From a virus (lineage: Duplodnaviria > Caudoviricetes): DNA of 64,000 nucleotides. The position numbers and the translations under genes are program-made. Where the stretch lies: the IMG/VR virus record IMGVR_UViG_3300033068_001847, positions 64,001 through 128,000 of that record; one strand, written 5' to 3'. The stretch's first letter is position 1, and every line of letters begins with the position of its first letter. Below, one piece after another: positions 2,865 through 62,572 of this stretch. The notes below the pieces were generated by a model. That model ran no database searches. It was given only the letters and a program-made list of their open reading frames with translations, and was not told the origin of the DNA.

Positions 2865-5800
2865 TTATACACATATTACCTCATTGTAAATATCTTTTTC
2901 TATAACTTCTAAATCTTCGAAAGATCCGAATTCAAATTTTGATAATACCCACCTCATTTCATCTAAAGGCGTTACTATCTCTTCCATTGTTGTTTCATCT
3001 AGTTTAACTAATTTGTTCGTATACTTTATAACAAGATCACCACTTAATAAATAATTCAATTCATTTTTAACTTCAATATCATTTGATTTGAAGAATTCAA
3101 TTATTCTTCGCTCTTGTTCATTCTTAATACTATTTTCTTCGGGTGTTAATAACTTAACATCAGTAAAATCCAAATGGAAATCGTTAAATATCTCTCTAGG
3201 ATCTTTTCCTTTAAGATTCCAGAATTTTACTTCTCGCTCTTCCATCTCAAATAATGGAACATTTTCATGTAACTTTGGATCATAATCCTCAGCAAATAAC
3301 ACGTCCTGTTCACTTTCACCATCCTTATTCAACGGCATACCACTAACTAATTCCATTTCTTTATCAGTAAATCTACCTCTTTTAGTTGGATCAGTTACAA
3401 TCAAATTCTCTCTAACTTCAGGACCGAAACATACGGTAAACATACTCATTCTATTATTGAAGTTGGCTATTGCACGAGGAACATTATACACCCCTGTTTT
3501 AGTTGGGTTTGTTATAATTTCCATTTCATCAATTAAATAACTATGACCAAGATCAGCATGTGATTTACGTGTTCCGTTATTTATATAATACACATTCTTA
3601 CCTAAATCAGGATCTAAATTTGCTGCAATTAATAATTCCATATGGGCTTGTCTGGACATTCCCCTACCATTTTTGTTCTTTTTATGTTCTAAATCGTATT
3701 TGTAATTTGCTACCTTTTGTTTTACTCTACTTTTATTAGCAATCTCTACAAGTGGAATCTGTTGATTATATATCCTTTCTAATTGAGAATAGTAGAGTTC
3801 AATAAATCCTTTTCCATCTCCATCTAATAATAAAGCAATTCCTGTTTTAAAGGTATTTTCAATATAAGCTTGTAATATACTGGATTTTAAACTGTTTCCT
3901 GTTATCTTAATTTTACCTTTTGGTGATTTAGTTGCGTAATTTTTACGAGCAATATTAATGGATGAAGTAAAAATACCATCCTCTTCAAGTTTCATTACAC
4001 CCTTCATATAGGTTTCATTAAACTCAGCTAATACCGCCAAATATCCTGTAATTTCTTCACCAGCTTTATTTACGTATTTAATATCATCAACATTATCAGG
4101 TAAATTAAAGTTAGCTCCATCCGTATCAATAACGATAGGTGTAAAATTATATTTCATGAAATGAGCTATCATTAATCTCAGGTACTGACGACCAGTACAA
4201 GTAATTTCCTCACCTACAATATTATCACCCCAATTAAATATTAAAGGTGATGATAATGCACCGAACTGCGAGTTCGCTAGAATTTTAATAGGTAATTGTT
4301 TAGTATTATATAATGAAGCCAATTCCTTATCTAATGGATTTCCAGTTTCCTCATATAATGCTTGGTGCTTTGCAGATAGTACTTGATATTCAATACGTCC
4401 ATCCCTGAAGTAAGTTAACATATCTTCAAGAACGTTTGTTATATCTAAAGTTGGGAAAACATCATGAGTTAATTGTATTGACGGGTATAGGGACTTGAAG
4501 TCCATTTTTAAAACGTTTGTTTTATATCCTGTTAAAAACAATCTTGATAAACCTCCCACAATGTCTCTCTTTCTATCAACAACAGGTATGGCAACATTAT
4601 TCTCATAAGAATATGTAACCATTAACATTTTCCACTTACCAGCATTACCCATTGTACTGGATCTTACATATGTAGTAGGCATTATACCACCCATCATGAA
4701 ATTTGATTGACTAAATTCATTGTCAACCATTTCAGTTTCAGTTAAGTCATCCAGAAGATACTGTTTTACGACTTCCTTACCTGTTATTAACTCAACATTA
4801 TTTTCATCATCTCCAAAAAATTCACTTATACTTACTAATTTTGGTAGGAGTGTAGATTTATCAGGACTATTCGATACCTTTCTAACTATATCCTTTAATT
4901 TAGTAATATACTCATCAGCTTTATCTTGATATTCGGTTGGAATTATATTATAATTATTGTTTACTTTGTTTATATAATAATTTTTATTATCCTTCCAGAT
5001 GGTATAGATCATATCACCCTTTACATACATACGATTTGGTTTTGCAAACCCTTTGTACTGACAAATATATTTTAGACCCCAACCTTTGATATCACTATTA
5101 ATCGCCTTAGTAGCTCTAACAGCATGGGAAATATCAATAACATTAATTCCCCACATTACTGTTTTTAAATAATTCTCAACTTCTCCACCAAACTTAATGG
5201 TAGATTTTTCACGTTTTAGTGGGCGATCTATATTTAATGAAGTTCTTACATCATAACTGATATTACCATCCTCATCACGAGTACCTAAATCAATTCCTAA
5301 TATATTAGCTCGTTTAATGATAAATTCAAAGTCAAACGCTTCAGAATTATATCCTGCAACAATTGCTGGTTTTAGATCATATATTGTTTGGAAAAATTCA
5401 ATGATCATCTTTTTTTCACTTTCAATAGGATCGTCTAAATCAATTTCAAGAACTTTTGCAAATCCTCTATTATCTTTCATTCCTATAAGGAATATGTTAC
5501 CATCTTCACCTTTTAATGAAGTGGTCTCAATATCAAATAAAAACTTATGAACTGAATCGTAAGATGTGAAACCTTTGAATAATCGTTTCCCTGTAGAAAT
5601 TAAAAATTGTTCTAAACCTGAATAGCTTAGAAACATATTATTTGGATCTTTATGGATTTTATAACCAGCTTTGAAGAAAAACTGCATTAAACTACCGAAA
5701 TTCTTATCAGTACTTACTTTATATTTAAAACCATGTTCTAATCTTGGATGATCATCAGTTCTAAGGGTGGTTACGGTAATACCATGATATTTCATGGCTT

Positions 5801-6041
5801 TATTTAATTCAACTCTATTACCGTATAATTTTTTACCTGCTTTTTTGAAATCTTTAATAAATAAAAATGGAGTAAACTTTTGTTGCTCCATGTATTTACC
5901 CTTTTCAGGGTGATCTATCATTAAAAATACTTCATTACTAGCGTAATCCCCTTCAATACCTGTAATGTACTTTTGTTCGTCTCGTCCCTCTAAGAACGTT
6001 TTAATTTTTGCAATTTTTTGTGATTTTTCTTCCTCTGTCAT
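2865..6041 (-). CDS. family B DNA polymerase with 3'-5' exonuclease
   Basis: FDIET, GYNSEAFD, YLLDD exonuclease motifs; DFKSLYPS, KILANSQFG, IDTDG polymerase motifs. Confidence 0.95.
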   Translation of the reverse strand: MTEEEKSQKIAKIKTFLEGRDEQKYITGIEGDYASNEVFLMIDHPEKGKYMEQQKFTPFLFIKDFKKAGKKLYGNRVELNKAMKYHGITVTTLRTDDHPRLEHGFKYKVSTDKNFGSLMQFFFKAGYKIHKDPNNMFLSYSGLEQFLISTGKRLFKGFTSYDSVHKFLFDIETTSLKGEDGNIFLIGMKDNRGFAKVLEIDLDDPIESEKKMIIEFFQTIYDLKPAIVAGYNSEAFDFEFIIKRANILGIDLGTRDEDGNISYDVRTSLNIDRPLKREKSTIKFGGEVENYLKTVMWGINVIDISHAVRATKAINSDIKGWGLKYICQYKGFAKPNRMYVKGDMIYTIWKDNKNYYINKVNNNYNIIPTEYQDKADEYITKLKDIVRKVSNSPDKSTLLPKLVSISEFFGDDENNVELITGKEVVKQYLLDDLTETEMVDNEFSQSNFMMGGIMPTTYVRSSTMGNAGKWKMLMVTYSYENNVAIPVVDRKRDIVGGLSRLFLTGYKTNVLKMDFKSLYPSIQLTHDVFPTLDITNVLEDMLTYFRDGRIEYQVLSAKHQALYEETGNPLDKELASLYNTKQLPIKILANSQFGALSSPLIFNWGDNIVGEEITCTGRQYLRLMIAHFMKYNFTPIVIDTDGANFNLPDNVDDIKYVNKAGEEITGYLAVLAEFNETYMKGVMKLEEDGIFTSSINIARKNYATKSPKGKIKITGNSLKSSILQAYIENTFKTGIALLLDGDGKGFIELYYSQLERIYNQQIPLVEIANKSRVKQKVANYKYDLEHKKNKNGRGMSRQAHMELLIAANLDPDLGKNVYYINNGTRKSHADLGHSYLIDEMEIITNPTKTGVYNVPRAIANFNNRMSMFTVCFGPEVRENLIVTDPTKRGRFTDKEMELVSGMPLNKDGESEQDVLFAEDYDPKLHENVPLFEMEEREVKFWNLKGKDPREIFNDFHLDFTDVKLLTPEENSIKNEQERRIIEFFKSNDIEVKNELNYLLSGDLVIKYTNKLVKLDETTMEEIVTPLDEMRWVLSKFEFGSFEDLEVIEKDIYNEVICV

Positions 6042-6095
6042 TATTTAGAAATTTTAGTTATATACATATTTAAGACCCTGTACCGGGAGTGCTAA

Positions 6096-6127
6096 CTAAA
6101 ATACTACAGAAAGAAAAAAAATCAAGT
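6096..6127 (-). promoter_or_regulatory. putative middle promoter ACTTGA-N18-TATTTTAG
   Basis: Same motif and spacing upstream of four minus-strand transcription units. Confidence 0.7.
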
Positions 6128-6128
6128 T

Positions 6129-7961
6129 TTATTTCACTTCATAAGAGAATGTAAATGAATAAATGTATGCTATATCTGTACTAGTTGTGTATGTAAAAGA
6201 TGCAGTATCATTAACTGTATTAGCTATTAATGATACTGGATTAGCTGTACTTACAGGTCCAAAACAAACACCATTTAAATCTGTTGCAACTGTAAAGTTA
6301 GATGATATTGGTAAACTTATTTCCACTGTTGTAACTGTACTAGTTCCATTTGTTGCATCAATTTCCATTTTACCATATACAGTTACTATATTATCTACTC
6401 TTGTATATTGACATTTATATGCAGTAGTACTAGTAATATTAGCAACATTTGTTAATGTCGGTGTATAAGTACCTCCAGTCATGTTTCCACCTGAACCGCT
6501 AGAAACACTACCATCAGCCATTAAATATTGACTAGAAGTTCCACCTGACTTAACAAATGATAATGCAGTTAATGTACCTGAATCACTAAGTATTATTTTA
6601 CTTACTCCATTAGTTCTAGCATTTAAAAAATCTCCAGAAGCACCACCAGTATTCTCAACAAGTAGATTATATGTTGTACCAGTACCATTATTAATGAATC
6701 TAGCGTTTTGAGTTTTTTTATAATTATTTGATTGTATGTTTGTGGGGTTATTACTTCCACCATTATTCTTTATATCTATACCATATGTTCCACCATTATT
6801 ATTTATAACTAATGCTGTATTAGCTTTATTTGTTATTGTTGCAGTCCCATTATAGTCTATACTAAATATAGTACCGTTATTATTAAATGAATTTTCAATA
6901 AAAAGACTATTCGAAAAGTTTCTAAGTCTAAAATCAGTCCTACCAGTATCTCCATATGTTATACCTGATGTAGTAAAATCAATTGATGATGATGATCCAC
7001 TTGACAATCTATTAAGTTCAATTTTTGTTGTTGTGCCTGTACTTGAAAATCGCTTAACCCCAACAAAAGTTTGATCTATAGTTGTCATTATACCACCGAA
7101 AGAAGATGATGCTGGTTCTAAATTTAATATTCCTGATGATAATGTTAAACCTGAAGCATTCGGTGTATTACCAATAATTTCTGTACTAACTCCACCACCT
7201 GTACTAACAGATCCATCTGCCATTAAATATTCTGATGATGTACCTCCTGATTTAATGAAAGCTGGTGATGTAAATGTACCCGAAGTTTTTACATTTCCGT
7301 TTAATCCTATATTAAAATAAGCATTACCTCTAGTGATATGAAAACTATTACTAGCAACACTCATAAAAGCCGCTATACCGCTACTAGGCATACCAATAGT
7401 CCAATCATCACTATTGGGACTTAATGTACCGAACGTAAGTCCAGCAGTATATCCAGTGGTAAATCTATGTATAGCTACTATAGTATTGCCACTAGGATTT
7501 TGAAAATAACTATTAGAACTGCTAAAAGTTTTAGATCCACCGATTGATTGATTTAGTGTTGTTAATATACCTCCGTTAGTTAATGAAGCTGGTTGTAATA
7601 TTAATGTACCTCCAGATATAGTTACACCTGATGAATTAGGAACGTTTCCTATAACACCTGCTGTTATTGATCCACTATCAGTAGATACACTTCCATCAGC
7701 CATAAGATACTGACTAGATGTACCTCCTGATTTAACAAATGAATTTGCTTGTATTGTAGTACCAGTTAATCCATTAGTTAATGTTCCACCTGTTAACGGT
7801 AACAATAATGTTAAACCAGAAGCTATCACATCAACATTTTCTTTTGTTAAATTAGCTAGTTCTGTAAATGTATTTCCAACATTATAAGGACTAATAGATT
7901 TATTTTTAGTCTTACTTGTAATGTTTACGGTTACACCCGTTAAAAAGGAGTTTATATTCAT
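6129..7961 (-). CDS. tail fibre / receptor-binding protein
   Basis: G/S/T/N-rich; three FxKSGGTSSxYLMADGSVS repeats; C-terminal domain shared with 15862 and 17856 ORFs. Confidence 0.75.
   Translation of the reverse strand: MNINSFLTGVTVNITSKTKNKSISPYNVGNTFTELANLTKENVDVIASGLTLLLPLTGGTLTNGLTGTTIQANSFVKSGGTSSQYLMADGSVSTDSGSITAGVIGNVPNSSGVTISGGTLILQPASLTNGGILTTLNQSIGGSKTFSSSNSYFQNPSGNTIVAIHRFTTGYTAGLTFGTLSPNSDDWTIGMPSSGIAAFMSVASNSFHITRGNAYFNIGLNGNVKTSGTFTSPAFIKSGGTSSEYLMADGSVSTGGGVSTEIIGNTPNASGLTLSSGILNLEPASSSFGGIMTTIDQTFVGVKRFSSTGTTTKIELNRLSSGSSSSIDFTTSGITYGDTGRTDFRLRNFSNSLFIENSFNNNGTIFSIDYNGTATITNKANTALVINNNGGTYGIDIKNNGGSNNPTNIQSNNYKKTQNARFINNGTGTTYNLLVENTGGASGDFLNARTNGVSKIILSDSGTLTALSFVKSGGTSSQYLMADGSVSSGSGGNMTGGTYTPTLTNVANITSTTAYKCQYTRVDNIVTVYGKMEIDATNGTSTVTTVEISLPISSNFTVATDLNGVCFGPVSTANPVSLIANTVNDTASFTYTTSTDIAYIYSFTFSYEVK
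6847..7202. repeat. 356-bp direct repeat, copy 1 (copy 2 at 17246..17601)
   Basis: Identical by eye across two tail fibre genes, offset 10399. Confidence 0.9.
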
Positions 7962-45508: not shown

Positions 45509-48154
45509 TTAGTTACCGATTGAGAATGAAGCACCTTGATCAGTTATTCCATACTCTATTGAAATATATTCAACAGCATTTGTAGGTTTAATTCTAATTG
45601 TTGCATTCAATTGTAATTGATCTCTGTCTGCATCTGTATTATTACTTTCATCACAGATTAATTCGAATGCACTAATACCTCTTTGTTTTTTTACATCACT
45701 TAGGATTGGAGTTATTAATCTCTTGAATTGATCCTGAAGTTCAACATCATTCGGTTCGAATAATAGTCTGATTGCAACAACAGAAACTAATTTATTTAAT
45801 TGAAGTAATAAACGTCTAACGTTAATACGATTTAATGCTGTATCTGCAACCTGTAACGTTTTATTACCCATAATTAACAAAGGTGATTGTGAGAATGTAC
45901 GGATAGGGTTTATTCTACCATCGTATAAAATATCACTTGCATCTTGATTAACTTTGTATTTAGTTCTCTTAGATTTTAATTGACCTCTGTTGTAACCAGC
46001 AGTTGCAAACCAAGGAGCTTTTGTTTTATCAGTTTCTGCAAAATCTCTAACTACTTCGAATGTTGGTGAAAGATAAATATTTACACCATTTTGAACATCG
46101 TTATGAGAAACCCAAGGTCCAAAAGTTGTAGTGTAGTTACTATCAATATCAGCAACATCTAAAAGATCAATTGAATCTTCAGCAGCACTAACAGCATCAA
46201 TCTGTTCACCACTATCTGTTTGATCTGGAGAAGTAACGATGTATAAAGCATCTTTTCTTTCTTCCTCTATCATGTCGATAGTTTCTTTTACTAAACCATT
46301 TTGTCTATCGTAATCAATACCCGGAGTAGCAAGTAAGTTAATTGCAACATCACTTGGGTTTGAGAAAGTTCTGATACCTTTTAAGTAAGCATAGTAATCA
46401 GATGGTAAAGATAAAGTGAATCCACTGAAGTTAGGTTGTGTAGATCTGAAGTCATCAGTATTAGTTCTGCTTGTTCTGTAAATATCCCAACCATCGAAAC
46501 CTCCTGCTGGACATAAAGTGAATTTTCTACTAGAAATTAATTCGTAATCACCACCAGTAACATCAGCTTCAGATAAGAATGATTCAGCACCAACTTCAAA
46601 TTTAGAAGCATCAGCATTAGTATCCATGTGGAAACCCTTAGTTGAACCACTGTAGATATTTTCTCCAATATAGTTAAACATATTTTGGTCAATACCAACA
46701 ATGTTACTAATACCTAAGTAAGCTTTCTTAATTTTTTCTGAAGTTAAATCGTACTCAGTTTTGTATAACATTTGTGGAATACCAGAACTAGCATAATTTT
46801 TAACTTTGTAACCTTCGAAACCAGCAGGTACTGCATCAATAGAAGCATTTGGATCTAATTCGATCATGATATACTCAGATCTGATTTCATAAAGTTCATC
46901 AGAAGTACCAACACGCTTTCCAACGAATGAAGTTAAAGCAGGATTCATTGAACATCTTCTGAATGCTTCTAAGATAGAAACATTAGCATCAGTATCATTG
47001 AAATCACGTACTATAATATCAAATTCTCTTGTAGCGAAGTTAATATTTTCAATACTAATTTTAATTTCTTTGTTCGCACTGTTACCATCAGAGATAGTAA
47101 TAATTTTGAACATTCTCTCAACTACATTACCTCTTAATTCAGAAACGATAAATGGAGTTTCAGGAGTAGCAAACTGGTGCTTATAGTCCGTTAATGAATT
47201 CTCAGCAACTAAAGTAGCTTTTAATCCGAATACTTTATCATCAGTAACTAATTGTTTTAGTTTTTTAGCGTAAATATCTTCTACGAAGATATCACCTTTG
47301 TTATCAGATGCGGTTACACCTAATACTTTACTAATAAAGTTTTGTTTACTTTCATCTAATGAAACAACATAAGTGTTATTATCAGTAGTTAAAGTAAATG
47401 CACCTAAAGCATCTTGAACAGCACCGCCATCAGATGATAATGTATCAGTTTTAAATTCTAATGCACCATCTACATATGCAGCCCTTGATCTGATTAAACC
47501 AACAGTTACGTTACTGTAACCAGTTAAAGAAGCACCAGTGATAGTTGTTAAAGTATAGTTTGCAGTTCCTTGAGTTGTACCAGAGAAAGTAACAACATTT
47601 AAACTTACTGCTTGAGCAGTAAAGCTTGAACCACCATAAGTTAAAGTACTTCCACTTGATACAGTAAAAGTTGATCCACTACTTAAAGCAGTAATTGGTA
47701 AGTTATCAAACTTAGCAGCTAAACCATTAATAGTAGAGTCACTAAATGAATTAGTAGATCCAGTAAAGGTGGTAGTTCCAGTTGTAACAACACTTCCGAT
47801 AGTTGCAGGGTCGATATCTCCAATAGTAGTAATAGTCCAAGCCTTACCAGCGTTATATCCTGATAAACCTAAGATTCTGGTTACATATAATTGATCCGAT
47901 TGAGTTAGATATTCATTTGCAATGTAAGGTAATTCATATTTAGGGACACCATTCGAAAATTTTTCAGGAGATTGTGCTCCAAATTTAGTTAAGAATTTAT
48001 TAGGATTTTTAACTAATATAGGTTCAAATGCCGGACCTTTTAACGTTTCACCAGCTACACCAAGTGTTGTAACACCTATAGATGTAGTTGCGTAAGATAA
48101 ATCAGTTTCTTTGGTGTATACACCGGGACTTACATAAATTTTATTATTTGCCAT
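45509..48154 (-). CDS. tail sheath protein (gp18-like)
   Basis: SPGVYTKETD, PWFATAGYNRG, INPI, RINVRRLL, FEPND, IKPT..VEYI. Confidence 0.95.
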   Translation of the reverse strand: MANNKIYVSPGVYTKETDLSYATTSIGVTTLGVAGETLKGPAFEPILVKNPNKFLTKFGAQSPEKFSNGVPKYELPYIANEYLTQSDQLYVTRILGLSGYNAGKAWTITTIGDIDPATIGSVVTTGTTTFTGSTNSFSDSTINGLAAKFDNLPITALSSGSTFTVSSGSTLTYGGSSFTAQAVSLNVVTFSGTTQGTANYTLTTITGASLTGYSNVTVGLIRSRAAYVDGALEFKTDTLSSDGGAVQDALGAFTLTTDNNTYVVSLDESKQNFISKVLGVTASDNKGDIFVEDIYAKKLKQLVTDDKVFGLKATLVAENSLTDYKHQFATPETPFIVSELRGNVVERMFKIITISDGNSANKEIKISIENINFATREFDIIVRDFNDTDANVSILEAFRRCSMNPALTSFVGKRVGTSDELYEIRSEYIMIELDPNASIDAVPAGFEGYKVKNYASSGIPQMLYKTEYDLTSEKIKKAYLGISNIVGIDQNMFNYIGENIYSGSTKGFHMDTNADASKFEVGAESFLSEADVTGGDYELISSRKFTLCPAGGFDGWDIYRTSRTNTDDFRSTQPNFSGFTLSLPSDYYAYLKGIRTFSNPSDVAINLLATPGIDYDRQNGLVKETIDMIEEERKDALYIVTSPDQTDSGEQIDAVSAAEDSIDLLDVADIDSNYTTTFGPWVSHNDVQNGVNIYLSPTFEVVRDFAETDKTKAPWFATAGYNRGQLKSKRTKYKVNQDASDILYDGRINPIRTFSQSPLLIMGNKTLQVADTALNRINVRRLLLQLNKLVSVVAIRLLFEPNDVELQDQFKRLITPILSDVKKQRGISAFELICDESNNTDADRDQLQLNATIRIKPTNAVEYISIEYGITDQGASFSIGN

Positions 48155-50881: not shown

Positions 50882-52003
50882 TTAGTGTATGTAAATTCCA
50901 AGTGGTGAATAACCTAATATTTTATTTAATTGTTCAGCTTCATTTGCACGTTTGGTTAATTGTGTTTCATAGCTTAGTCCATCTAATCTTTCTTTTAGTT
51001 CAGCTTTTAACGCTTCAACTTCTGATCTACCATCTTCCAGAAGGAAAGAATAATCCATTTGGATAGAAGCATCAGTTATATCAATATTACCACTATATTT
51101 ACCACGAATTAATCCTAATAATTTTTTAGCTTCAGCTAGTAAATAACGTCTGATCCATGTTTTAGAACTTGCATTTAATTTACCCCATTTAAGATTCTCA
51201 ATTGGAACATCTGAAGGTCTGGTAATAACAGCTAAATCCGCATTATCACTTAAACATTTACTCTTGTTTTTAGAATTTGTTTCATAATAAAAATACCAAA
51301 CTTGCATTCCATCTGCATTACTAGAAAAATAACTTCCTAGACCTCTTGGTTGATATTTACCTCCCGGTACTGGATATAAGTGTAATATTTTACTTCCATC
51401 TGCTTTTCCAGTAATTCTATAAGATAATTCACTCTTCATGATTTTATTCTTCATAGATCTATCAGAAGCTGCAAGTAAAGATGAATAAGCTGGAGCAACA
51501 TAACCAAACATAGTACCACCGTAACCCCACCCCCATTCATTTGCAGACCAACCTACAGGGTTTAAAGTATCATAAGCCATAAAAGATGGAGTCGCCCAAA
51601 TAACTTCATTAACTTCTCTACCTTTAGGTATTGGATAAAATTGTGTATTAGCACTTAGTATTATACAGTCTTTCTTTAATTCCCAACTTTCACCTGCTGG
51701 AGCATTAGTACCTAAACCTACCTGTCTTGAATATGCATAAGAAAATGATTTAGCAAAACTTAAATCCTTAGTAGAGAAAGCAACATTAAAATCAGAATCT
51801 TCAATACTTAATCCAGATAATGTAGACCATTGCTGATCAACTAACCAATCATTAATATATTGGGAATAATCTTCTAATGCATTACAGAATAAAGTATCTA
51901 ATTGTTCATCTGTAAGTTCTACATTACGAACACCCATACCTAATTGATGATATATGTTTTTAAATAATTTTTCTCTCTCTGGTGCGGTTATTAATGTTGC
52001 CAT
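50882..52003 (-). CDS. neck protein (gp13-like)
   Basis: LG....VELTDEQL...AL; WIRRY.LA.AK..LG.IRGKYS. Confidence 0.8.
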   Translation of the reverse strand: MATLITAPEREKLFKNIYHQLGMGVRNVELTDEQLDTLFCNALEDYSQYINDWLVDQQWSTLSGLSIEDSDFNVAFSTKDLSFAKSFSYAYSRQVGLGTNAPAGESWELKKDCIILSANTQFYPIPKGREVNEVIWATPSFMAYDTLNPVGWSANEWGWGYGGTMFGYVAPAYSSLLAASDRSMKNKIMKSELSYRITGKADGSKILHLYPVPGGKYQPRGLGSYFSSNADGMQVWYFYYETNSKNKSKCLSDNADLAVITRPSDVPIENLKWGKLNASSKTWIRRYLLAEAKKLLGLIRGKYSGNIDITDASIQMDYSFLLEDGRSEVEALKAELKERLDGLSYETQLTKRANEAEQLNKILGYSPLGIYIH

Positions 52004-52108
52004 TTATGTACTTTATCATAAATAGTTTTATACTTGATATTTATTTAACTATTGAATATATTTTGTAATGAGTGAGGTACATCCCACCAACATTAAAATA
52101 TAAATAAA

Positions 52109-52759
52109 ATGAAAAGTAGAATTAACTTAGATGTTGACTATGCAGGTCAACCATGTATTAAAATTAATCTTCAATCAAGTGAAGATATAAGAGATAAAAC
52201 CTTAACAAGGTTACTCAATCAAGTTGAATATCCTAATAATAACGGTTACAAAATAAAATTCCCGAAAAATATCTTTGTTATCGAAGAGGATTTTGATAAT
52301 AGTAGCTGTTCAAGTGGTTATGGTGAACCGGGAATAACTAAAACTCTAGTACCTATAGATCGAATAGTAGCTCAAAAATTAGGGATGATAGATCCACGCA
52401 CTTCACATTGTGATAATACTCCAGTTCGTTCTTCAATAATTGATGATATAAATAGAGTAAGAGACTTATATAGATTACTAAATTTAGAAACGTCAGATAT
52501 TGATAGAATTGAGAATATTTTGGAAACTGTACCACATTTTAAAAATAAATTAAATAAATACACATTAATCGAATATCCACAGTTTAATACTAAAGTTTTA
52601 TCTTATATTAATGAAAATGATTTCAGTGAACATATATTGATAGATAATGGAAAAATTATGAGTAAATATGATTTTGAAGAGAATTATTTAGGTAAGGTAA
52701 ATCTATCAGATACCCAAGGTTTTAATAACTCACAACAAATATCTGAAAGAATAGAATAA
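52109..52759 (+). CDS. hypothetical protein
   Basis: ORF track. Confidence 0.7.
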   Translation: MKSRINLDVDYAGQPCIKINLQSSEDIRDKTLTRLLNQVEYPNNNGYKIKFPKNIFVIEEDFDNSSCSSGYGEPGITKTLVPIDRIVAQKLGMIDPRTSHCDNTPVRSSIIDDINRVRDLYRLLNLETSDIDRIENILETVPHFKNKLNKYTLIEYPQFNTKVLSYINENDFSEHILIDNGKIMSKYDFEENYLGKVNLSDTQGFNNSQQISERIE

Positions 52760-52762
52760 AAA

Positions 52763-52793
52763 TTTGTAAATTAGAATATTTATACTATATTTG
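52763..52793 (+). promoter_or_regulatory. Bacteroidota-type promoter upstream of tRNA-Glu
   Basis: TTTG-N19-TATATTTG. Confidence 0.7.
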
Positions 52794-52866
52794 CATCAGT
52801 CTAAACATAATTGAAGTTACTCACTTGAATATTGAAACAATACTTTAATTGATTATTAGACATTTT

Positions 52867-52938
52867 GGACCGTTCGTCTAGGGGTTAGGACACGACATTT
52901 TCGATGTTGGAACAGGGGTTCGATTCCCCTACGGTCTA
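52867..52938 (+). tRNA. tRNA-Glu(TTC)
   Basis: Cloverleaf; acceptor GGACCGT/ACGGTCT; loop TT-TTC-GA; GTTCGA T loop. Confidence 0.9.
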
Positions 52939-52953
52939 CATATTATTGAATGT

Positions 52954-53184
52954 ATGAAATTACGATCAGCACAACAATTACATATCGAATGTTCAGTTGA
53001 AGAACTACAACAATTTATGATTGAAGAATTTAAAAAGAAAGGTTTTCTTGTTGGTGCAGATGATGTTAAAGTTATTAATTCAAATTTCATAGAGAAAGAT
53101 ACTACAGAATATGGTGATCACTTCCCATCTTCAAAAGTGGTTGGGTTAGAAATAACTATTGAATATGATGTAAAAGAACAATAA
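52954..53184 (+). CDS. hypothetical protein
   Basis: ORF track. Confidence 0.65.
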   Translation: MKLRSAQQLHIECSVEELQQFMIEEFKKKGFLVGADDVKVINSNFIEKDTTEYGDHFPSSKVVGLEITIEYDVKEQ

Positions 53185-53281
53185 TTAATTTTTAAAAAGG
53201 GGAATGTTATACTCCGAATACGGAAAGCAAGAAAAGATAACACTCACTTGCGCTATTAGTTATTCTAAATATTAATTATTT

Positions 53282-53361
53282 GCTCGAATGGTGGAATTGG
53301 TAGACACGCAGGACTTAAAATCCTGTCCGAAAGGGTGCGAGTTCGATTCTCGCTTCGAGTA
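53282..53361 (+). tRNA. tRNA-Leu(TAA)
   Basis: CAGGA-CT-TAA-AA-TCCTG; variable arm; T loop. Confidence 0.92.
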
Positions 53362-53389
53362 CTAAAAAATTTACTAGATATTTATGATA

Positions 53390-53632
53390 ATGAAAACGTT
53401 ATCAGAACAAATATATAGGATGAATGAATTAGCAGGAGTTATTGTTGAAGCAAATAAAACTCCTTGTCAAACACCAGATTCAACATTTCATACAGAAGTA
53501 AAAGATAATAAGATAACTTGTAGTGTAGATCTACCAATGGATTTAAATCTATCACCAGCAGATGCTAAAATATTAGAAACAAACATTCATAATGCAATGG
53601 AATTAGTTTTAGCCCCATATTTTAAAAAATAA
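53390..53632 (+). CDS. hypothetical (late) protein MKTLSEQIYRMNELAG
   Basis: TATTTATG at 53379-53386 precedes the ATG. Confidence 0.65.
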   Translation: MKTLSEQIYRMNELAGVIVEANKTPCQTPDSTFHTEVKDNKITCSVDLPMDLNLSPADAKILETNIHNAMELVLAPYFKK

Positions 53633-53675
53633 TAACACTGATAATCAACAAGTTATAAAATAAATATAAATAAAG

Positions 53676-53706
53676 TTTGCAAATTTAAAATATTTACTTA
53701 CATTTG
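53676..53706 (+). promoter_or_regulatory. Bacteroidota-type promoter for the leader/tRNA operon
   Basis: TTTG-N19-TACATTTG. Confidence 0.75.
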
Positions 53707-53726
53707 TACTATATATAATTAATAAA

Positions 53727-53834
53727 ATGAAAAATTTAAATACATATCACCGCTCTAGTTCGCTGCAACCGTATCAACACAGTTGCCCTGAAGTGGGTGC
53801 GTTAATATGTAAAGGAGGTGGAAGTACTATTTAA
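53727..53834 (+). CDS. putative attenuator leader peptide MKNLNTYHRSSSLQPYQHSCPEVGALICKGGGSTI
   Basis: A-rich start context (TAATAAA-ATG) 20 nt after the promoter; codons 7-21 match the downstream tRNAs. Confidence 0.75.
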   Translation: MKNLNTYHRSSSLQPYQHSCPEVGALICKGGGSTI

Positions 53835-53865
53835 ATACTGAAACACAATATATAAAGATGCACCC
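53795..53865 (+). promoter_or_regulatory. putative antiterminator helix GGGTGCGTT (53795-53803) : GATGCACCC (53857-53865)
   Basis: 9-bp complementarity with 2 GU pairs, overlapping the terminator 5' arm. Confidence 0.65.
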
Positions 53866-53897
53866 CAAGGATAATAGGATTCTTGGGGTTTTTCTTT
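53862..53897 (+). terminator. intrinsic terminator (attenuator) upstream of the tRNA array
   Basis: ACCCCAAGGAT/ATTCTTGGGGT 11-bp stem followed by TTTTCTTT. Confidence 0.85.
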
Positions 53898-53914
53898 GGA
53901 AGAAACTTTTAAAT

Positions 53915-53989
53915 GACTATATGGCTGAGTGGTCAAAGGCAACGGTCTGCAAAACCGTAAAACCGTTGGTTCAAATCCAACTATAGTCT
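53915..53989 (+). tRNA. tRNA-Cys(GCA)
   Basis: ACGGT-CT-GCA-AA-ACCGT; U discriminator. Confidence 0.92.
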
Positions 53990-54000
53990 CAGAAGAATAA

Positions 54001-54073
54001 CGGGTAGTAGGGAAGTTGGTATCCCGCCACATTTGGGATGTGGAGATCGCAGGTTCGAGTCCTGCTTACCCGA
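54001..54073 (+). tRNA. tRNA-Pro(TGG)
   Basis: CCACA-TT-TGG-GA-TGTGG. Confidence 0.92.
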
Positions 54074-54119
54074 CTGGTTATGGGTTCACAATAGACGTTC
54101 TTTGAATGGAATTGTACTT

Positions 54120-54202
54120 GGAAGATTGGCAGAGTGGTCGATTGCGCTAGTCTTGAAAACTAGAGGATGAAAGTCCCAAAGGTTCGAATCCTTTATCTTC
54201 CG
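54120..54202 (+). tRNA. tRNA-Ser(TGA)
   Basis: CTAGT-CT-TGA-AA-ACTAG; variable arm. Confidence 0.92.
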
Positions 54203-54341
54203 CAAACATAAAAGGTTACCCTGCTTGTTCCGTATGGGGTTATAAATGTGTATAAGTTAACGGAACTCCTGTGGTGTTGCAGCCTAAAAATTGCACTAAA
54301 TATACTGAACAGACCTTTTATCTTTATAAAAAATAGAAATA

Positions 54342-54509
54342 ATGAATAAAAATGAAAAAAAGAAACAGAAATTAAAAGAACGTATTAATGCTTTGGAGCA
54401 GATCGTATTGTTATCATTAACTAAAAAAAGTTCGAATGAAACAGAAATTAATGTACCAGCATATCAACGACAAATAAATGATCTCAAAAAAGAATTGAGA
54501 GATTTATAA
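54342..54509 (+). CDS. small coiled-coil protein, 55 aa, not in ORF track
   Basis: MNKNEKKKQKLKERINALEQIVLLSLTKKSSNETEINVPAYQRQINDLKKELRDL. Confidence 0.65.
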   Translation: MNKNEKKKQKLKERINALEQIVLLSLTKKSSNETEINVPAYQRQINDLKKELRDL

Positions 54510-54515
54510 TAAAAG

Positions 54516-54596
54516 GGGAGTGTTCCAGAGCGGTCAAATGGGACGGACTGTAAATCCGTTACTTCGGTTTCGTAGGTTCGAATCCTTCCACTCCCA
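54516..54596 (+). tRNA. tRNA-Tyr(GTA)
   Basis: ACGGA-CT-GTA-AA-TCCGT. Confidence 0.92.
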
Positions 54597-54601
54597 CAAT
54601 T

Positions 54602-54673
54602 AGTCTATTAGTTCAACGGATAGAATACCTGACTACGGATCAGGTGATAGGAGTTCGAATCTTCTATGGACTA
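54602..54673 (+). tRNA. tRNA-Arg(ACG)
   Basis: CCTGA-CT-ACG-GA-TCAGG. Confidence 0.92.
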
Positions 54674-54680
54674 CAAGAAT

Positions 54681-54760
54681 GCCCTTGTGACTTATGCAAA
54701 CTGGTACAGCTACGAGCCTTAGAACCTCGGTTTTTGAGAGTTCGAATCTCTCCAAGGGTA
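54681..54760 (+). tRNA. tRNA-Leu(TAG), atypical
   Basis: Acceptor GCCCTTG/CAAGGGT; loop CT-TAG-AA; short variable region and odd D arm. Confidence 0.8.
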
Positions 54761-54771
54761 CTTAAAATAAA

Positions 54772-54963
54772 ATGAAAATGATAACAGATATCAGATATAA
54801 CGAAGATGGTAAATTATATGCAAAATTATTAGGACATATAGATATTTACGGAACTGACTTAAATGATTTAAGAACAGCAGCTAGAGAAGCGTTTACATGT
54901 TTCTGTATAATTGCTGAAACTCATGGTCAGGGACTACAGCAGGAATTAGAAGGTTTAATCTAA
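54772..54963 (+). CDS. small protein, possible HicB-like antitoxin fold
   Basis: EDGKLYA...YGTDLNDLRTAAREAF resembles the HicB N-terminal domain pattern. Confidence 0.45.
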   Translation: MKMITDIRYNEDGKLYAKLLGHIDIYGTDLNDLRTAAREAFTCFCIIAETHGQGLQQELEGLI

Positions 54964-54968
54964 TATTT

Positions 54969-55042
54969 TGTTCTGTAGTGTAACTGGTTAACACGTCTGA
55001 TTTTGGTTCAGAAGATTCTAAGTTCGAACCTTAGCAGAACAA
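54969..55042 (+). tRNA. tRNA-Gln(TTG)
   Basis: TCTGA-TT-TTG-GT-TCAGA. Confidence 0.92.
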
Positions 55043-55104
55043 CGGGTTAGACTGTTAATAATTCATAGACTGTCATAAAAACATGGAGCGTAGAATTATA
55101 ATAT

Positions 55105-55178
55105 GGTAAATGTAGCTTAATTGGTAGAGCATCAGCTTGTGGCGTTGAGAGGTGGGGGTTCGATTCCCCTCGTTTACC
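55105..55178 (+). tRNA. tRNA-His(GTG)
   Basis: TCAGC-TT-GTG-GC-GTTGA; encoded G-1 and C73. Confidence 0.92.
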
Positions 55179-55185
55179 CAAAATT

Positions 55186-55268
55186 GGAGAATTGTCAGAG
55201 CGGTCTATCGTGCTTCTTTGCTAAAGAAGTGTGTGAAAGCACCACAGGTTCGAATCCTGTATTCTCCG
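55186..55268 (+). tRNA. tRNA-Ser(GCT)
   Basis: CTTCT-TT-GCT-AA-AGAAG; variable arm. Confidence 0.92.
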
Positions 55269-55285
55269 CTTAATTACCACAAATG

Positions 55286-55314
55286 TGCGGAGAATGTATC
55301 ACTTATTCTCCGCA
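55286..55314. terminator. hairpin between the tRNA array and convergent structural genes
   Basis: TGCGGAGAAT/ATTCTCCGCA. Confidence 0.6.
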
Positions 55315-55321
55315 TTAAATT

Positions 55322-56791
55322 TTAAGTTATAGGAAAACGATTATAACTAGCCATTGGTATAGAAGAATTACTTACAGTATCCCCATTCTGATATTTATAA
55401 GTTAATTTATCGGTTGCGCTGACAGTATTTGTACATTGTAATGTCCATGTAGTACCTGTACCAGAAATACCAGTAACTGGATTATCTGTAACACCTGTTA
55501 CATCTGTTACCACATATGCTTCATATAATGTTTGTACCATCGGAGAATCATAAACTAAAAGTACGGTAGTCCCACTAGCAGTTGCAGAAGTGATTTGTGG
55601 GAGTACAACATCTGTATTAGGATCAATTATAAAAGGATTTTCTGCATACATATTTATTAACCCTGTAGCACTATTAAATTTTACCTCAGCATTAGGAACA
55701 TTAGATTCTACTGTAACACTGATAATAGATGCGTCTGCATTCTGTACAGTAAAGGATGTATTAAAATAAACCAAATGTCTTTCTATTCCACTATATGATA
55801 AATAAGTATATAGTTTATTACCTACTATCTTGTATTGTTTATAAACACCCCTTCTAACTAATTCATAATCAAGAGCTTCTTGTGCTGTATAAATACCTGC
55901 ATTTTCATAATTAGCATGATCTTTAATTATATTACACATTGTGTGAAAGTTAGTAAGAGTATCATCCTCCCCAAGTATACCATGATAAAAATATGGCATA
56001 TATCCAAAAGCATCCCCTATACCAGTACAAGCAGCATAATGGGTATTAACTTGAGTTTCAAAATCATCAATGGCGGTTTGATTAATAGTATTACCGACAT
56101 AATATCTATAATATAGATGTCTTGTGGTATTCATTAAAGTAGGAAACCATCTATTACTAAAACCATAACCATCATCCATACCTGCTACACCCCAAGTACT
56201 CATCCAAATAGGAACATAATTAAGTGGACCTGATGCAGCATAACCAGCATCAGCACTTGGAACTACTCCCGTAGTAGCTAATAATCCAAATTTCTCCCAA
56301 AACTTTTTAGTGTTTAGGGTAATCTCACTATATAAATTAAATCCACCATGATTATAACCATGATTTGTTGGATAACATAATCTATGACCTATTACAATTG
56401 GGTTACCAGTAGTTTCTTTAGAAAATATAGGAATTAATTGTGACCACTTTGCAGCATTAGGATTACCAGAATCTTCATCATGGTCTGGATTAGCATTAAG
56501 AGCTATATTAAATTTAGCTGGTCTTTGATTTCCACAACCATCTGAATAAGTCCAAAGAGGGTAAGTATTACCATCTGCTGTTTCTACACCTTGTAAGTAT
56601 TTATGTAAATAAGTATTGTCTGATGGACCAGCATCATCAGTATATGGTATAAATCCAGTCGTCTTACCTTCTGGCATCTTATTATGTGATAAGACTACAG
56701 AAGGATTAGGTGGTGTATCAAATTCAGTTATAATAGTTATAAGTTGACTATTTTTAACTACTGGTATTTCAAAATTACCTTCTATATTCAT
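55322..56791 (-). CDS. polysaccharide deacetylase (NodB/CE4)-like protein with C-terminal Ig/SwmB-like domain
   Basis: YTDDAG, NHGYNH, FYHGI motifs; PQITSATASGTTVLLVYD. Confidence 0.55.
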   Translation of the reverse strand: MNIEGNFEIPVVKNSQLITIITEFDTPPNPSVVLSHNKMPEGKTTGFIPYTDDAGPSDNTYLHKYLQGVETADGNTYPLWTYSDGCGNQRPAKFNIALNANPDHDEDSGNPNAAKWSQLIPIFSKETTGNPIVIGHRLCYPTNHGYNHGGFNLYSEITLNTKKFWEKFGLLATTGVVPSADAGYAASGPLNYVPIWMSTWGVAGMDDGYGFSNRWFPTLMNTTRHLYYRYYVGNTINQTAIDDFETQVNTHYAACTGIGDAFGYMPYFYHGILGEDDTLTNFHTMCNIIKDHANYENAGIYTAQEALDYELVRRGVYKQYKIVGNKLYTYLSYSGIERHLVYFNTSFTVQNADASIISVTVESNVPNAEVKFNSATGLINMYAENPFIIDPNTDVVLPQITSATASGTTVLLVYDSPMVQTLYEAYVVTDVTGVTDNPVTGISGTGTTWTLQCTNTVSATDKLTYKYQNGDTVSNSSIPMASYNRFPIT

Positions 56792-59118: not shown

Positions 59119-59754
59119 ATGAAAGAGTATTTATATAAATATAAAAAAACATATCATTTAGACTTTTCAGAATCAATTACCAGTGATGATAAGATATTGA
59201 AAAGTGTAGATCACTTCCTTGGTAAAAGAATTATTGTGACTGAAAAGATGGATGGAGAATGTACATCTGTTTATACTAATTACTATCATGCCCGTTCATT
59301 GGAATCAGCAAATCATCCTTCCCAAAATCTAATCAAAGGATATTGGGCAGAACGACAATACTTAATACCTGAAGGTTGGCGAGTATGTGGTGAAAATTTA
59401 TATGCACAACATTCAATTATATATGATAATCTTGATGCTTATTTTTATTGTTTTAATACTTGGAATGATAAGAATGAATGTTTATCTTATGATGAAACTT
59501 TAGAATGGTGTGAGTTATTAAATATTGTACATGTACCAGTTTTATATGATGGGATATTTGATTATGATCTCGTTAAAAAGATTTATTTAGATTTAAATAA
59601 AGATTTACATGAGGGTATTGTAATTAGATTAGCAGATTCATTTCATTATAAAGATTTCAGCAAATCATTAGCTAAAGCGGTAAGAAAAAATCATGTTACT
59701 ACAGATGAACATTGGTCTAAACAAGTTATTATACCAAATAAATTAAAACAGTAA
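59119..59754 (+). CDS. ATP-dependent RNA ligase
   Basis: Motif I TEKMDGE, CGENLYA.HSI.Y, EGIVIR, K.VR..HV. Confidence 0.85.
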   Translation: MKEYLYKYKKTYHLDFSESITSDDKILKSVDHFLGKRIIVTEKMDGECTSVYTNYYHARSLESANHPSQNLIKGYWAERQYLIPEGWRVCGENLYAQHSIIYDNLDAYFYCFNTWNDKNECLSYDETLEWCELLNIVHVPVLYDGIFDYDLVKKIYLDLNKDLHEGIVIRLADSFHYKDFSKSLAKAVRKNHVTTDEHWSKQVIIPNKLKQ

Positions 59755-60744: not shown

Positions 60745-61662
60745 ATGAGAAAGAATAAAATCGTAAGAGTATTAATTGGACCTCCAGCCAGTGGTAAAAC
60801 TACATGGACTAAACAGTTCTTGTTGAGAAACCGTGATTGGGTGTCAGTGAATCGTGATGCCTTTCGGTTTATGTTCAGAGATGAACCTACACCTGAGCCA
60901 CGAGTAGAGGATCTTATAACTGAAATGCAAGCTGAAGCTATTGTTAAAGCTCTAAATAAAGGACTTAACGTAATAGTAGATAATACTAATTTAAGACATA
61001 AATATTTAAATGAAATTATTCAACTAGTTCAATTTAAAGCAGATGTTGAATTTCAAATATTTGATGCACCATTACATGTATGTCAGAAACGAGATAAGGA
61101 ACGTGCTAAATCAGTAGGTGATGAAGTTGTTAATAAAATGCACAACCAGTATAAAAACATCATTGATAGTTTTGGCTTTGAGAACCGTTCTAAGCGACCT
61201 TCATACGAAGATAGGTTTATTCCTCTTGTACAAGATCAAACACTCCCACAAGCTGTTATATTTGATATAGACGGTACAATAGCTTTGATGGGAAGAAGAA
61301 GTGAATATGATTGGAATAAAGTAGATGTAGATGATCCTCATGATATAGTTATTGAGCAAATAAAACTTCACCAAGATAAAGGGCGTAAGATTTTACTGGT
61401 TTCAGGTAGGGATGAAGAAGCTAGGGAAAAAACACTCTACTGGCTTGAGTATTATAATGTTTATTTTGATGAATTATTAATGCGTCCTAAAGATGATATG
61501 AGAAAAGATTATATTATTAAAAAAGAGATTTTTAATAATCAAATCAAAGACCGATATAATGTATGGGCTGTGTATGATGATCGCTTACAAGTAATTAAAA
61601 AAGCTTGGTTTGAATTAGGATTATTTTGTTTCAATGTTAATCAAGGGATGAAAGATTTTTAA
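60745..61662 (+). CDS. pseT: polynucleotide 5'-kinase / 3'-phosphatase (T4 Pnk-like)
   Basis: GPPASGKTT, NRD, DNTN kinase motifs; FDIDGT, SGR, DDR HAD phosphatase motifs. Confidence 0.92.
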   Translation: MRKNKIVRVLIGPPASGKTTWTKQFLLRNRDWVSVNRDAFRFMFRDEPTPEPRVEDLITEMQAEAIVKALNKGLNVIVDNTNLRHKYLNEIIQLVQFKADVEFQIFDAPLHVCQKRDKERAKSVGDEVVNKMHNQYKNIIDSFGFENRSKRPSYEDRFIPLVQDQTLPQAVIFDIDGTIALMGRRSEYDWNKVDVDDPHDIVIEQIKLHQDKGRKILLVSGRDEEAREKTLYWLEYYNVYFDELLMRPKDDMRKDYIIKKEIFNNQIKDRYNVWAVYDDRLQVIKKAWFELGLFCFNVNQGMKDF

Positions 61663-62005: not shown

Positions 62006-62572
62006 ATGGAAAAGATTGAATTATTTGAAAATTTTGATATAGGTGTAGATCCAAATACGTGTTTTGATATCTTATCAAAAAATATCAAATGGCACGAAAC
62101 GTTATTGAGTGTAAATAATGAGCCAGTTAAAATTAAAAGAAAAATGGCTTATGTCTATGATAGAGTTGTAACTTATTATTATAGTACATTACACTTTGAA
62201 GGTGAATTATGGATTCCTGTATTAGAAACGATCAGAGATAAAGTAAATGGATTTACTGGTATTGAATTTAATTCAGTATTGTTGAATTACTATAAAAATG
62301 GTAAGGATGAAATAAAATGGCACTCTGATAAAGAAGAAAATTTAGGTGATATAAGCGAATCAGTTATTGCTACAGTAAATTTAGGAGCTACCAGAAAATT
62401 CTGGTATTTAAATAAAGCTACTGGTGATAAAGACTTTTACTCTGTAGCCAACGGTGGATTGTTAATGATGAATGCTGGTTTTCAAAATGAGTATTTACAT
62501 GCAATATTACCTGAAAAACAAATAAAAGATCCAAGGATTAGTTTAACATTTAGAAAAGTAACTCATGACTAA
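62006..62572 (+). CDS. AlkB-family 2OG-Fe(II) dioxygenase
   Basis: FNSVLLNYY..G.D.I.WHSD...LGATR.F...H...RISLTFR. Confidence 0.9.
   Translation: MEKIELFENFDIGVDPNTCFDILSKNIKWHETLLSVNNEPVKIKRKMAYVYDRVVTYYYSTLHFEGELWIPVLETIRDKVNGFTGIEFNSVLLNYYKNGKDEIKWHSDKEENLGDISESVIATVNLGATRKFWYLNKATGDKDFYSVANGGLLMMNAGFQNEYLHAILPEKQIKDPRISLTFRKVTHD

Follow-up and report, generated by a model that had tools for sequence, protein, structure and literature searches.

Introduction

Enterobacterial leader-peptide attenuators include trpL, hisL, leuL and pheL, and some are multivalent, the ilvGMEDA leader carrying Ile, Leu and Val codons and the thr leader Thr and Ile codons. In the pheST attenuator, synthetase genes are themselves under leader-peptide control. 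Here we describe a locus in a 64,000-nucleotide stretch of viral DNA (Caudoviricetes; hereafter the window), which comprises bases 64001-128000 of the 184-kb contig IMGVR_UViG_3300033068_001847 (CheckV completeness 53%). At positions 53676-55269 of the window, a promoter, a 35-codon leader open reading frame (ORF) and an intrinsic terminator stand directly before an array of tRNA genes, and the leader is composed of the codons that those tRNAs read. We consider it likely that the locus regulates a phage tRNA operon by ribosome-mediated (leader-peptide) transcription attenuation.

The window module and 15 related modules share with the ilv and thr attenuators a predicted layout of a short translated leader rich in regulatory codons, a terminator and a competing antiterminator, with several amino acids represented in each leader. 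The 5' strand of the antiterminator lies right after the regulatory codons in the ilv and thr systems, and it occupies the same place in the phage modules. There are also clear differences. The genes under control are tRNAs rather than biosynthetic enzymes, and the phage leaders sample up to nine or more codon families once or twice each, whereas the ilv and thr leaders use runs of a single codon. In addition, the phage modules have Bacteroidota-type promoters and no sequence homology to the enterobacterial leaders.

Leader-peptide control of aminoacyl-tRNA synthetase genes is also described for hisS and hisZ (for hisS, see PMC2965389). Like pheST, these systems attenuate a component of translation that serves the very codons being tested, but each concerns one synthetase and one amino acid, whereas in the phage modules the tRNA itself is the product and many anticodons are tested. 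T-box riboswitches (mentioned in PMC2965389) are similar in that transcription attenuation reports the state of the tRNA pool and feeds back on translation-related genes. A T-box, however, binds one uncharged tRNA directly and needs no ribosome, whereas the phage modules would sense tRNAs through the speed of the ribosome.

A full-text literature search returned no description of leader-peptide control of tRNA genes or phage tRNA arrays, an absence that is no proof in itself. We found such attenuation described only for amino-acid and synthetase genes, and tRNA genes are probably a new class of target. Phage tRNA genes are usually regarded as cotranscribed with their neighbors.

Results

Architecture of the window module

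A first-pass annotation of this DNA had described a promoter, a 35-codon ORF and a terminator ahead of nine tRNA genes, and direct reading together with ORF and terminator calls finds the first three exactly as it placed them (Table 1). The promoter has the two-box form (TTTG, ~19 nt, TAnnTTTG) known from Bacteroides and Flavobacteria, and a sigma-70 promoter scan found nothing at 53676-53706. The leader stop codon is 27 nt from the terminator stem, which in turn is 26 nt from the first tRNA gene, tRNA-Cys. The annotation had named a separate promoter between the terminator and tRNA-Cys as one case that would speak against attenuation. None was seen: in a motif scan of 53707-55300, which includes the 26-nt gap before tRNA-Cys, there is no -7 box (TAnnTTTG) anywhere.

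Both ARAGORN and Rfam (RF00005, scores above the family threshold) call eight of the nine tRNA genes claimed downstream of the terminator. The ninth, Leu-TAG at 54681-54761, falls below the default thresholds of both and is an ortholog of the properly called tRNA-Leu(tag) of a related contig, L006. The two share the acceptor stem and the anticodon loop; the window copy has a 5-nt insertion in the D-arm, and its variable arm is shorter by 3 alignment columns than that of L006 and by 7 than that of L007. Because the alignment shows orthology with altered D and variable arms, we treat the element as a degenerate or atypical Leu-UAG gene. It may be decaying, though the leader retains a CTG codon. 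A relaxed ARAGORN call of the same element as Arg(ACG) was dropped in favor of Leu(UAG) on the grounds of orthology and the anticodon loop.

The leader codons are improbable by chance

Leader codons 7-21, which we refer to as the sensor stretch, lie without exception in codon boxes read by the nine tRNAs, and all nine tRNAs are represented among them, as had been claimed from the first reading. That reading put the chance of such a run at p ~3e-6 under uniform codon usage. With this genome's own usage in 134 long ORFs as background, the result is considerably stronger, p ~3e-10 per 15-codon window, because the 26-codon set of the nine boxes covers just 23.3% of the codons in those ORFs. When the whole 184-kb genome was scanned in six frames, the leader run was the sole fully in-set window among 368,330 windows of 15 codons, and the only one that also represents all nine tRNAs. 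In real genes (the 134 long ORFs), an in-set run is no longer than 6 codons. The remark that several GC-rich codons of the leader are unusual for this genome also holds, as CGC, CTG and TCG each make up 2-3% of their own synonymous sets. We observed, separately, that the array serves boxes that the phage seldom uses: CGC accounts for 2% of its Arg codons, CTG for 2% of its Leu codons and TGC for 9% of its Cys codons.

Related phages contain 15 further modules

Comparison of the window with ~50,000 phage records at the DNA level gave tRNA-sized matches only and no close relative, and tblastn with the gp13 homologue found among cultured phages distant relatives only (<27% identity). A protein search with the gp13 homologue gave many metagenomic relatives, whose contigs were fetched. 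Four contigs with gp13 at 54-73% identity (L006, L007, L008 and L225) have the same arrangement of leader, terminator and tRNAs adjoining gp13, and their leader ORFs are homologues at the same position as that of the window. A pattern scan of viral contigs added L022, which has two convergent modules. Nine more came from tRNA-rich stretches of distant relatives; a tRNA search of the whole records of such relatives gave 65 tRNA-model matches in the complete 357-kb genome G002 and 36 in the 349-kb genome G004. Together with the window, this makes 16 modules in eight contigs of related T4-like jumbo phages, all of one architecture.

A promoter of the form TTTG-N17-22-TAnnTTT[G/A] lies just upstream of 14 of the 16 leaders. 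In every module the stem of the terminator lies 20-35 nt past the stop codon, and its energy is between -10.5 and -19.3 kcal/mol. The first called tRNA begins 8-195 nt past the stem, and at most 50 nt past it in 11 of the 16 modules.

Other searches added no module. The conserved leader-start pattern gave 120 loci in a metagenome scan, every one a chance match or an unrelated gene, and 80 viral contigs with gp13 at 38-48% identity had no tRNAs adjoining gp13 save one, L143. In the cultured Flavobacterium phage vB_FspM_immuto, which had a tRNA match, reading of the sequence showed no evident leader and terminator module before tRNA-Cys. We also looked at the Caulobacter phage phiCbK (L240, JX100813, 47000-53000), where GenBank annotates rho-independent terminators right before three tRNA blocks. 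Its gp083, a 45-residue hypothetical protein encoded before a Pro/Lys/Leu/Ser block, shows many Ser, Leu, Pro and Lys residues on inspection, along with many Ala and Thr. phiCbK is a possible cultured test system.

Table 1. Coordinates of module parts and neighboring genes. Positions are those of the window unless another contig is given.
Feature	Contig	Positions	Strand	Details
Bacteroidota-type promoter	window	53676-53706	+	-33 TTTG 53676-53679, -7 TAcaTTTG 53699-53706; read from sequence
Leader ORF, 35 codons	window	53727-53834	+	
Sensor stretch, codons 7-21	window	53745-53789	+	15/15 codons in boxes of array tRNAs, 9/9 anticodons represented
Hairpin 1:2, sensor codons with antiterminator strand	window	53741-53811	+	minimum-free-energy helices 53741-47/53805-11, 53751-57/53794-801, 53759-62/53789-92, 53765-69/53782-86
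Antiterminator 5' strand (region 2)	window	53787-53811	+	core GGGUGCGUU at 53795-53803
Antiterminator 3' strand (region 3)	window	53850-53870	+	overlaps 9/11 terminator 5'-arm positions, pairs 8
Intrinsic terminator	window	53862-53897	+	11-bp stem 53862-72/53879-89, T-tract 53890-97, -15.7 kcal/mol
tRNA-Cys(GCA)	window	53915-53990	+	ARAGORN and Rfam
tRNA-Pro(TGG)	window	54001-54074	+	ARAGORN and Rfam
tRNA-Ser(TGA)	window	54120-54203	+	ARAGORN and Rfam
tRNA-Tyr(GTA)	window	54516-54597	+	ARAGORN and Rfam
tRNA-Arg(ACG)	window	54602-54674	+	ARAGORN and Rfam
Degenerate tRNA-Leu(UAG)-like element	window	54681-54761	+	ARAGORN at relaxed threshold only; aligns with tRNA-Leu(tag) of L006 and L007
tRNA-Gln(TTG)	window	54969-55043	+	ARAGORN and Rfam
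tRNA-His(GTG)	window	55106-55179	+	ARAGORN and Rfam
tRNA-Ser(GCT)	window	55186-55269	+	ARAGORN and Rfam
Terminator-like hairpin closing array	window	55285-55315	+	
RNA ligase	window	59119-59754		with next two genes, 4-7 kb downstream of tRNA array
Polynucleotide kinase-phosphatase	window	60745-61662		kinase and HAD phosphatase domains; downstream of tRNA array
AlkB-type 2OG-Fe(II) oxygenase	window	62006-62572		downstream of tRNA array
Leader	L006	8819-8920	-	similar N-terminus
Leader	L007	7352-7444	-	similar N-terminus
Leader	L008	9699-9809	-	similar N-terminus
Leader	L225	6876-6992	-	similar N-terminus
Module	L022	6618-6698	-	convergent with next
Module	L022	5174-5257	+	convergent with previous
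Modules	L229	1621-1689, 5874-5966, 17121-17213		
Module	L230	5438-5563		
Modules	L232	1673-1747, 3823-3915		
Module	L233	2528-2656		
Module	L234	3430-3510		
Module	L235	1951-2031		

Leader codons follow the tRNAs of the cognate array

According to the first-pass annotation, co-variation between sensor codons and tRNA content was to be expected among related phages, and it is seen across the 16 modules, with specificity within single genomes. The modules of G002 illustrate this. The leader ahead of nine Pro, His and Gln tRNAs consists of Pro, His and Gln codons; that ahead of seventeen Asp, Glu, Val, Leu, Ala and Trp tRNAs is made of codons for those six; that ahead of six Lys and Tyr tRNAs is rich in Lys and Tyr; and that ahead of a Thr/Cys/Asn/Ile/Ser/Phe/Gly block is rich in those residues. 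Likewise, the two leaders of L022 have almost no sensor codons in common, and each suits the tRNAs on its own side.

Array size confounds the plain proportion of leader codons that an array covers, and we used tests against the codon usage of each module's own genome instead. By this measure 15 of the 16 leaders are enriched for codons of their arrays (binomial p 1e-9 to 3e-2). Nearly all anticodon species of an array are matched by a leader codon (9/9 for the window, 13/13 for G002b and 14/14 for G004d). In genomes with two to four modules, the cognate array scored highest for 10 of 11 leaders, against ~4 of 11 expected by chance as computed from group sizes, and the non-cognate arrays of the same genome were mostly below background. 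The leader codons further indicated tRNAs that were absent from the default ARAGORN calls, and a relaxed scan then recovered them: Glu-TTC in L022(+) and Tyr and Ser-GCT in L022(-).

The correspondence goes further than the amino acid. Only the L008 leader has CAG codons, and only L008 has a tRNA-Gln(CTG). In the family to which the window module belongs, the presence and absence of single tRNAs is also mirrored: L008 has no Arg or Leu tRNAs, and its sensor stretch has no Arg or Leu codons, and L225 alone has Leu-TAA inside its array and alone has TTA inside its sensor stretch. In the G002 leaders, GTA/GTC/GTG, CTC/CTA/CTG, CCC/CCA/CCG and AAA/AAG occur alongside the matching isoacceptors. Because the leaders track isoacceptors and the presence or absence of individual tRNAs, the entity that is matched appears to be the tRNA rather than the amino acid.

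This observation bears on a first alternative, in which the switch operates but senses the supply of amino acids or the overall capacity for translation, timing the array to the state of the infected cell, with the codon match merely keeping the test relevant. The architecture is indeed identical to that of amino-acid operons, and it is established for trp- and his-type attenuators that a stalled ribosome cannot distinguish a missing tRNA from an uncharged one. The regulated genes, however, are tRNAs, and extra tRNA would be no relief of amino-acid starvation; furthermore, the leader codon set follows the particular tRNA mix of each array, down to isoacceptors and synonymous codons. We regard this alternative as unlikely.

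A predicted RNA switch that depends on ribosome position

In the minimum-free-energy (MFE) fold of the window leader, the sensor codons pair with 53779-53811 and the terminator forms. We then scanned a ribosome along the leader, removing the RNA that it covers, with the 3' arm of the terminator not yet made. With the ribosome on codons 8-16, region 2 is predicted to pair with region 3 (core 53795-53803 with 53857-53865) in a duplex of -21.7 kcal/mol that takes up 8 of the 11 nt of the terminator 5' arm. This antiterminator pairing is lost when the P-site is at about codon 20 or later.

The same behavior is predicted throughout. An antiterminator that excludes the terminator and depends on ribosome position was found in silico in 16 of 16 modules. 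With the ribosome in the sensor stretch, the terminator 5' arm is 50-90% paired across the 16 modules, except at the very first codons of G002c (~40%) and of L235 (lower still), and it drops to ~0-40% within two to four codons of the end of the stretch. In every case the pairing partner of the arm sits directly 3' of the sensor codons and contains many Gly codons (GGN), and two modules have it overlapping the stop codon. Each of the 16 modules pairs more than its composition-shuffled sequences do on average (MFE folds), with individual p-values that are modest.

The antiterminator also appears to have changed together with the terminator. Duplexes between a leader and its own terminator arm average -13.6 kcal/mol, compared with -8.5 for all leader/arm pairs, and for 13 of the 16 arms the cognate leader is among the two best, a value that 0 of 20,000 permutations reach. 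Because cognate duplexes are stronger than the set of all pairs in this permutation test, we conclude that the antiterminator co-varies with the terminator.

These results also weigh on a second alternative, in which the small ORF is the gene of a conserved micro-protein, or the transcript is a small regulatory RNA that ends at a terminator of its own, and the array is expressed by leaky read-through or from an unrecognized promoter. A promoter, a short RNA and a terminator are what a small RNA gene usually consists of, a hairpin forms in the leader region, and the N-terminal residues are conserved among the leaders. Yet the peptides of different module families have in common only that short N-terminal motif, present in most leaders, whereas the match to the local tRNAs is maintained; the leader fold without the terminator is unremarkable (z-score -1.0); and several modules have only 8-26 nt from terminator to first tRNA. 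Pfam and PHROG searches gave no match for the leader peptide, and Rfam none for the leader region. Within 52000-56000, Rfam matched nothing besides tRNAs at E up to 1, and its T-box model, which captures the specifier loop, the T-box sequence and stem I, accordingly had no match. We therefore judge the micro-protein or small-RNA reading very improbable.

That an AT-rich genome produced by chance a small ORF fitting its neighboring tRNAs, a concern insofar as the first test was post hoc, is effectively refuted by the uniqueness of the run in its genome and by the recurrence of the pattern in 15 further modules with different codon sets.

Genome setting

The window genome has a GC content of ~30%, and its T4-type virion genes include those for a gp13-like head completion protein (50882-52003) and a tail sheath (45509-48154). 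ARAGORN calls ten tRNAs in the whole contig, all clustered at a single site. Two of them, Glu-TTC and Leu-TAA, lie upstream of the leader behind their own promoter at 52763. This unit (52763-53632) consists, in order, of a Bacteroidota-type promoter, tRNA-Glu(TTC), a 76-residue ORF, tRNA-Leu(TAA) and an 82-residue ORF; it is without leader or terminator, and no terminator was found ahead of the leader promoter either. Two further small ORFs sit between tRNA genes inside the array (54342-54509, 55 residues, and 54772-54963, 63 residues), and neither matches a Pfam or PHROG family. A similar-looking small ORF was seen by eye in the L008 tRNA array, at ~7230-7465 on the minus strand.

Downstream of the array, the genes for an RNA ligase, a kinase-phosphatase and an oxygenase (Table 1) resemble a T4-style tRNA repair kit. 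All three are also found beside the array in L006, and the RNA ligase gene beside that in L225. In L008, a 388-kb relative, two aminoacyl-tRNA synthetase-like proteins and a ribosomal L12-like protein adjoin the tRNA array (31-1656 and 5349-6542; Pfam matches). Three related jumbo phages encode a tRNA that, with its CTA anticodon, reads the stop codon TAG: G002 (L230:15908-15982), G004 (L233:12387-12464) and G003 (L237:1380-1453). TAG could be recoded in these three phages. In the window's own genome, ARAGORN found no CTA-anticodon tRNA in the whole contig.

Discussion

The earlier proposal that this locus works by trp/his/ilv-type attenuation is supported by the codon match in 16 modules, by an antiterminator that co-varies with the terminator and by the lack of an internal promoter in the motif scan. 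In the mechanism that we favor, transcription would begin at the 53676-53706 promoter and a ribosome would translate the 35-codon leader, with codons 7-21 decoded by tRNAs of the kinds present in the array. If decoding is fast, the ribosome would come to cover 53787-53811, leaving 53850-53870 unpaired, so that the terminator (53862-53889) would form and transcription would stop before tRNA-Cys. If decoding of any sensor codon is slow, whether its tRNA is in short supply, uncharged or damaged, the ribosome would stall upstream, the free strand would pair with the 5' arm of the terminator, and RNA polymerase would read through into the tRNA genes. The outcome would be negative feedback on decoding capacity for the whole codon set. 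Since many relatives have 8-26 nt between the terminator and the first tRNA, their arrays must depend on read-through. We infer that the leader is translated, that the switch has this direction in vivo and that tRNA rather than amino-acid supply is the signal.

Several points weigh against this interpretation. The evidence is wholly computational, and we know of no demonstration of tight coupling between transcription and translation in Bacteroidota. The 16 modules belong to about nine homologous families, so combined p-values overstate their independence. Not all modules fit equally well: the L007 leader contains codons for Tyr and Cys although the fetched DNA showed no tRNA for either, and it has no His codon despite a possible tRNA-His, while module L235 reaches significance only when a Gly tRNA lying 1.4 kb beyond is included. 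In the window itself, the Leu-UAG gene is degenerate, and under strict wobble (U34 reading A and G only) 13 of the 15 sensor codons are covered; TCT and CCT are lost, and their decoding by the array tRNAs would require a modified U34. Furthermore, because no terminator was found before the leader promoter, transcripts from the 52763 promoter may run into the attenuator.

The state of the RNA without a ribosome is a further difficulty. In the trp model an untranslated leader terminates, whereas an antiterminator is still predicted in most of our modules when no ribosome is present. The terminator 5' arm of the window module is then predicted to be 0.60 paired, and its predicted switch is less sharp than those of most relatives. 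The simplest logic consistent with these folds would be that the antiterminator is the default state and that a fast ribosome removes it.

In phage T4, a kinase-phosphatase and an RNA ligase mend tRNA that has been cleaved by an anticodon nuclease. The presence of similar genes near the window array fits selection by tRNA-targeting defenses, as circumstantial evidence. It is conceivable, and we suggest it only tentatively, that the modules form an inducible counter-defense, in which multi-input sensors would switch on replacement tRNAs when these are depleted by anticodon nucleases, tRNA-targeting toxins or host shut-off, working with the RNA ligase and kinase-phosphatase encoded 4-6 kb downstream. 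With the same reserve, many large phages might more broadly regulate their tRNA supply block by block through leader-peptide feedback.

If the attenuator operates as proposed, it would extend textbook trp/his attenuation to a new class of target and would form a feedback loop on decoding capacity itself, with many inputs to each switch and with the switch rebuilt for each array. It would also explain why terminators are placed directly before phage tRNA blocks. Because a leader lists the tRNAs of its array, it would serve as a readable clue to array content, and its design would amount to a compact, programmable sensor of codon-specific translation speed. Finally, such control would bear on why phages carry tRNAs at all, whether for codon supply or for escape from defenses that target tRNA.

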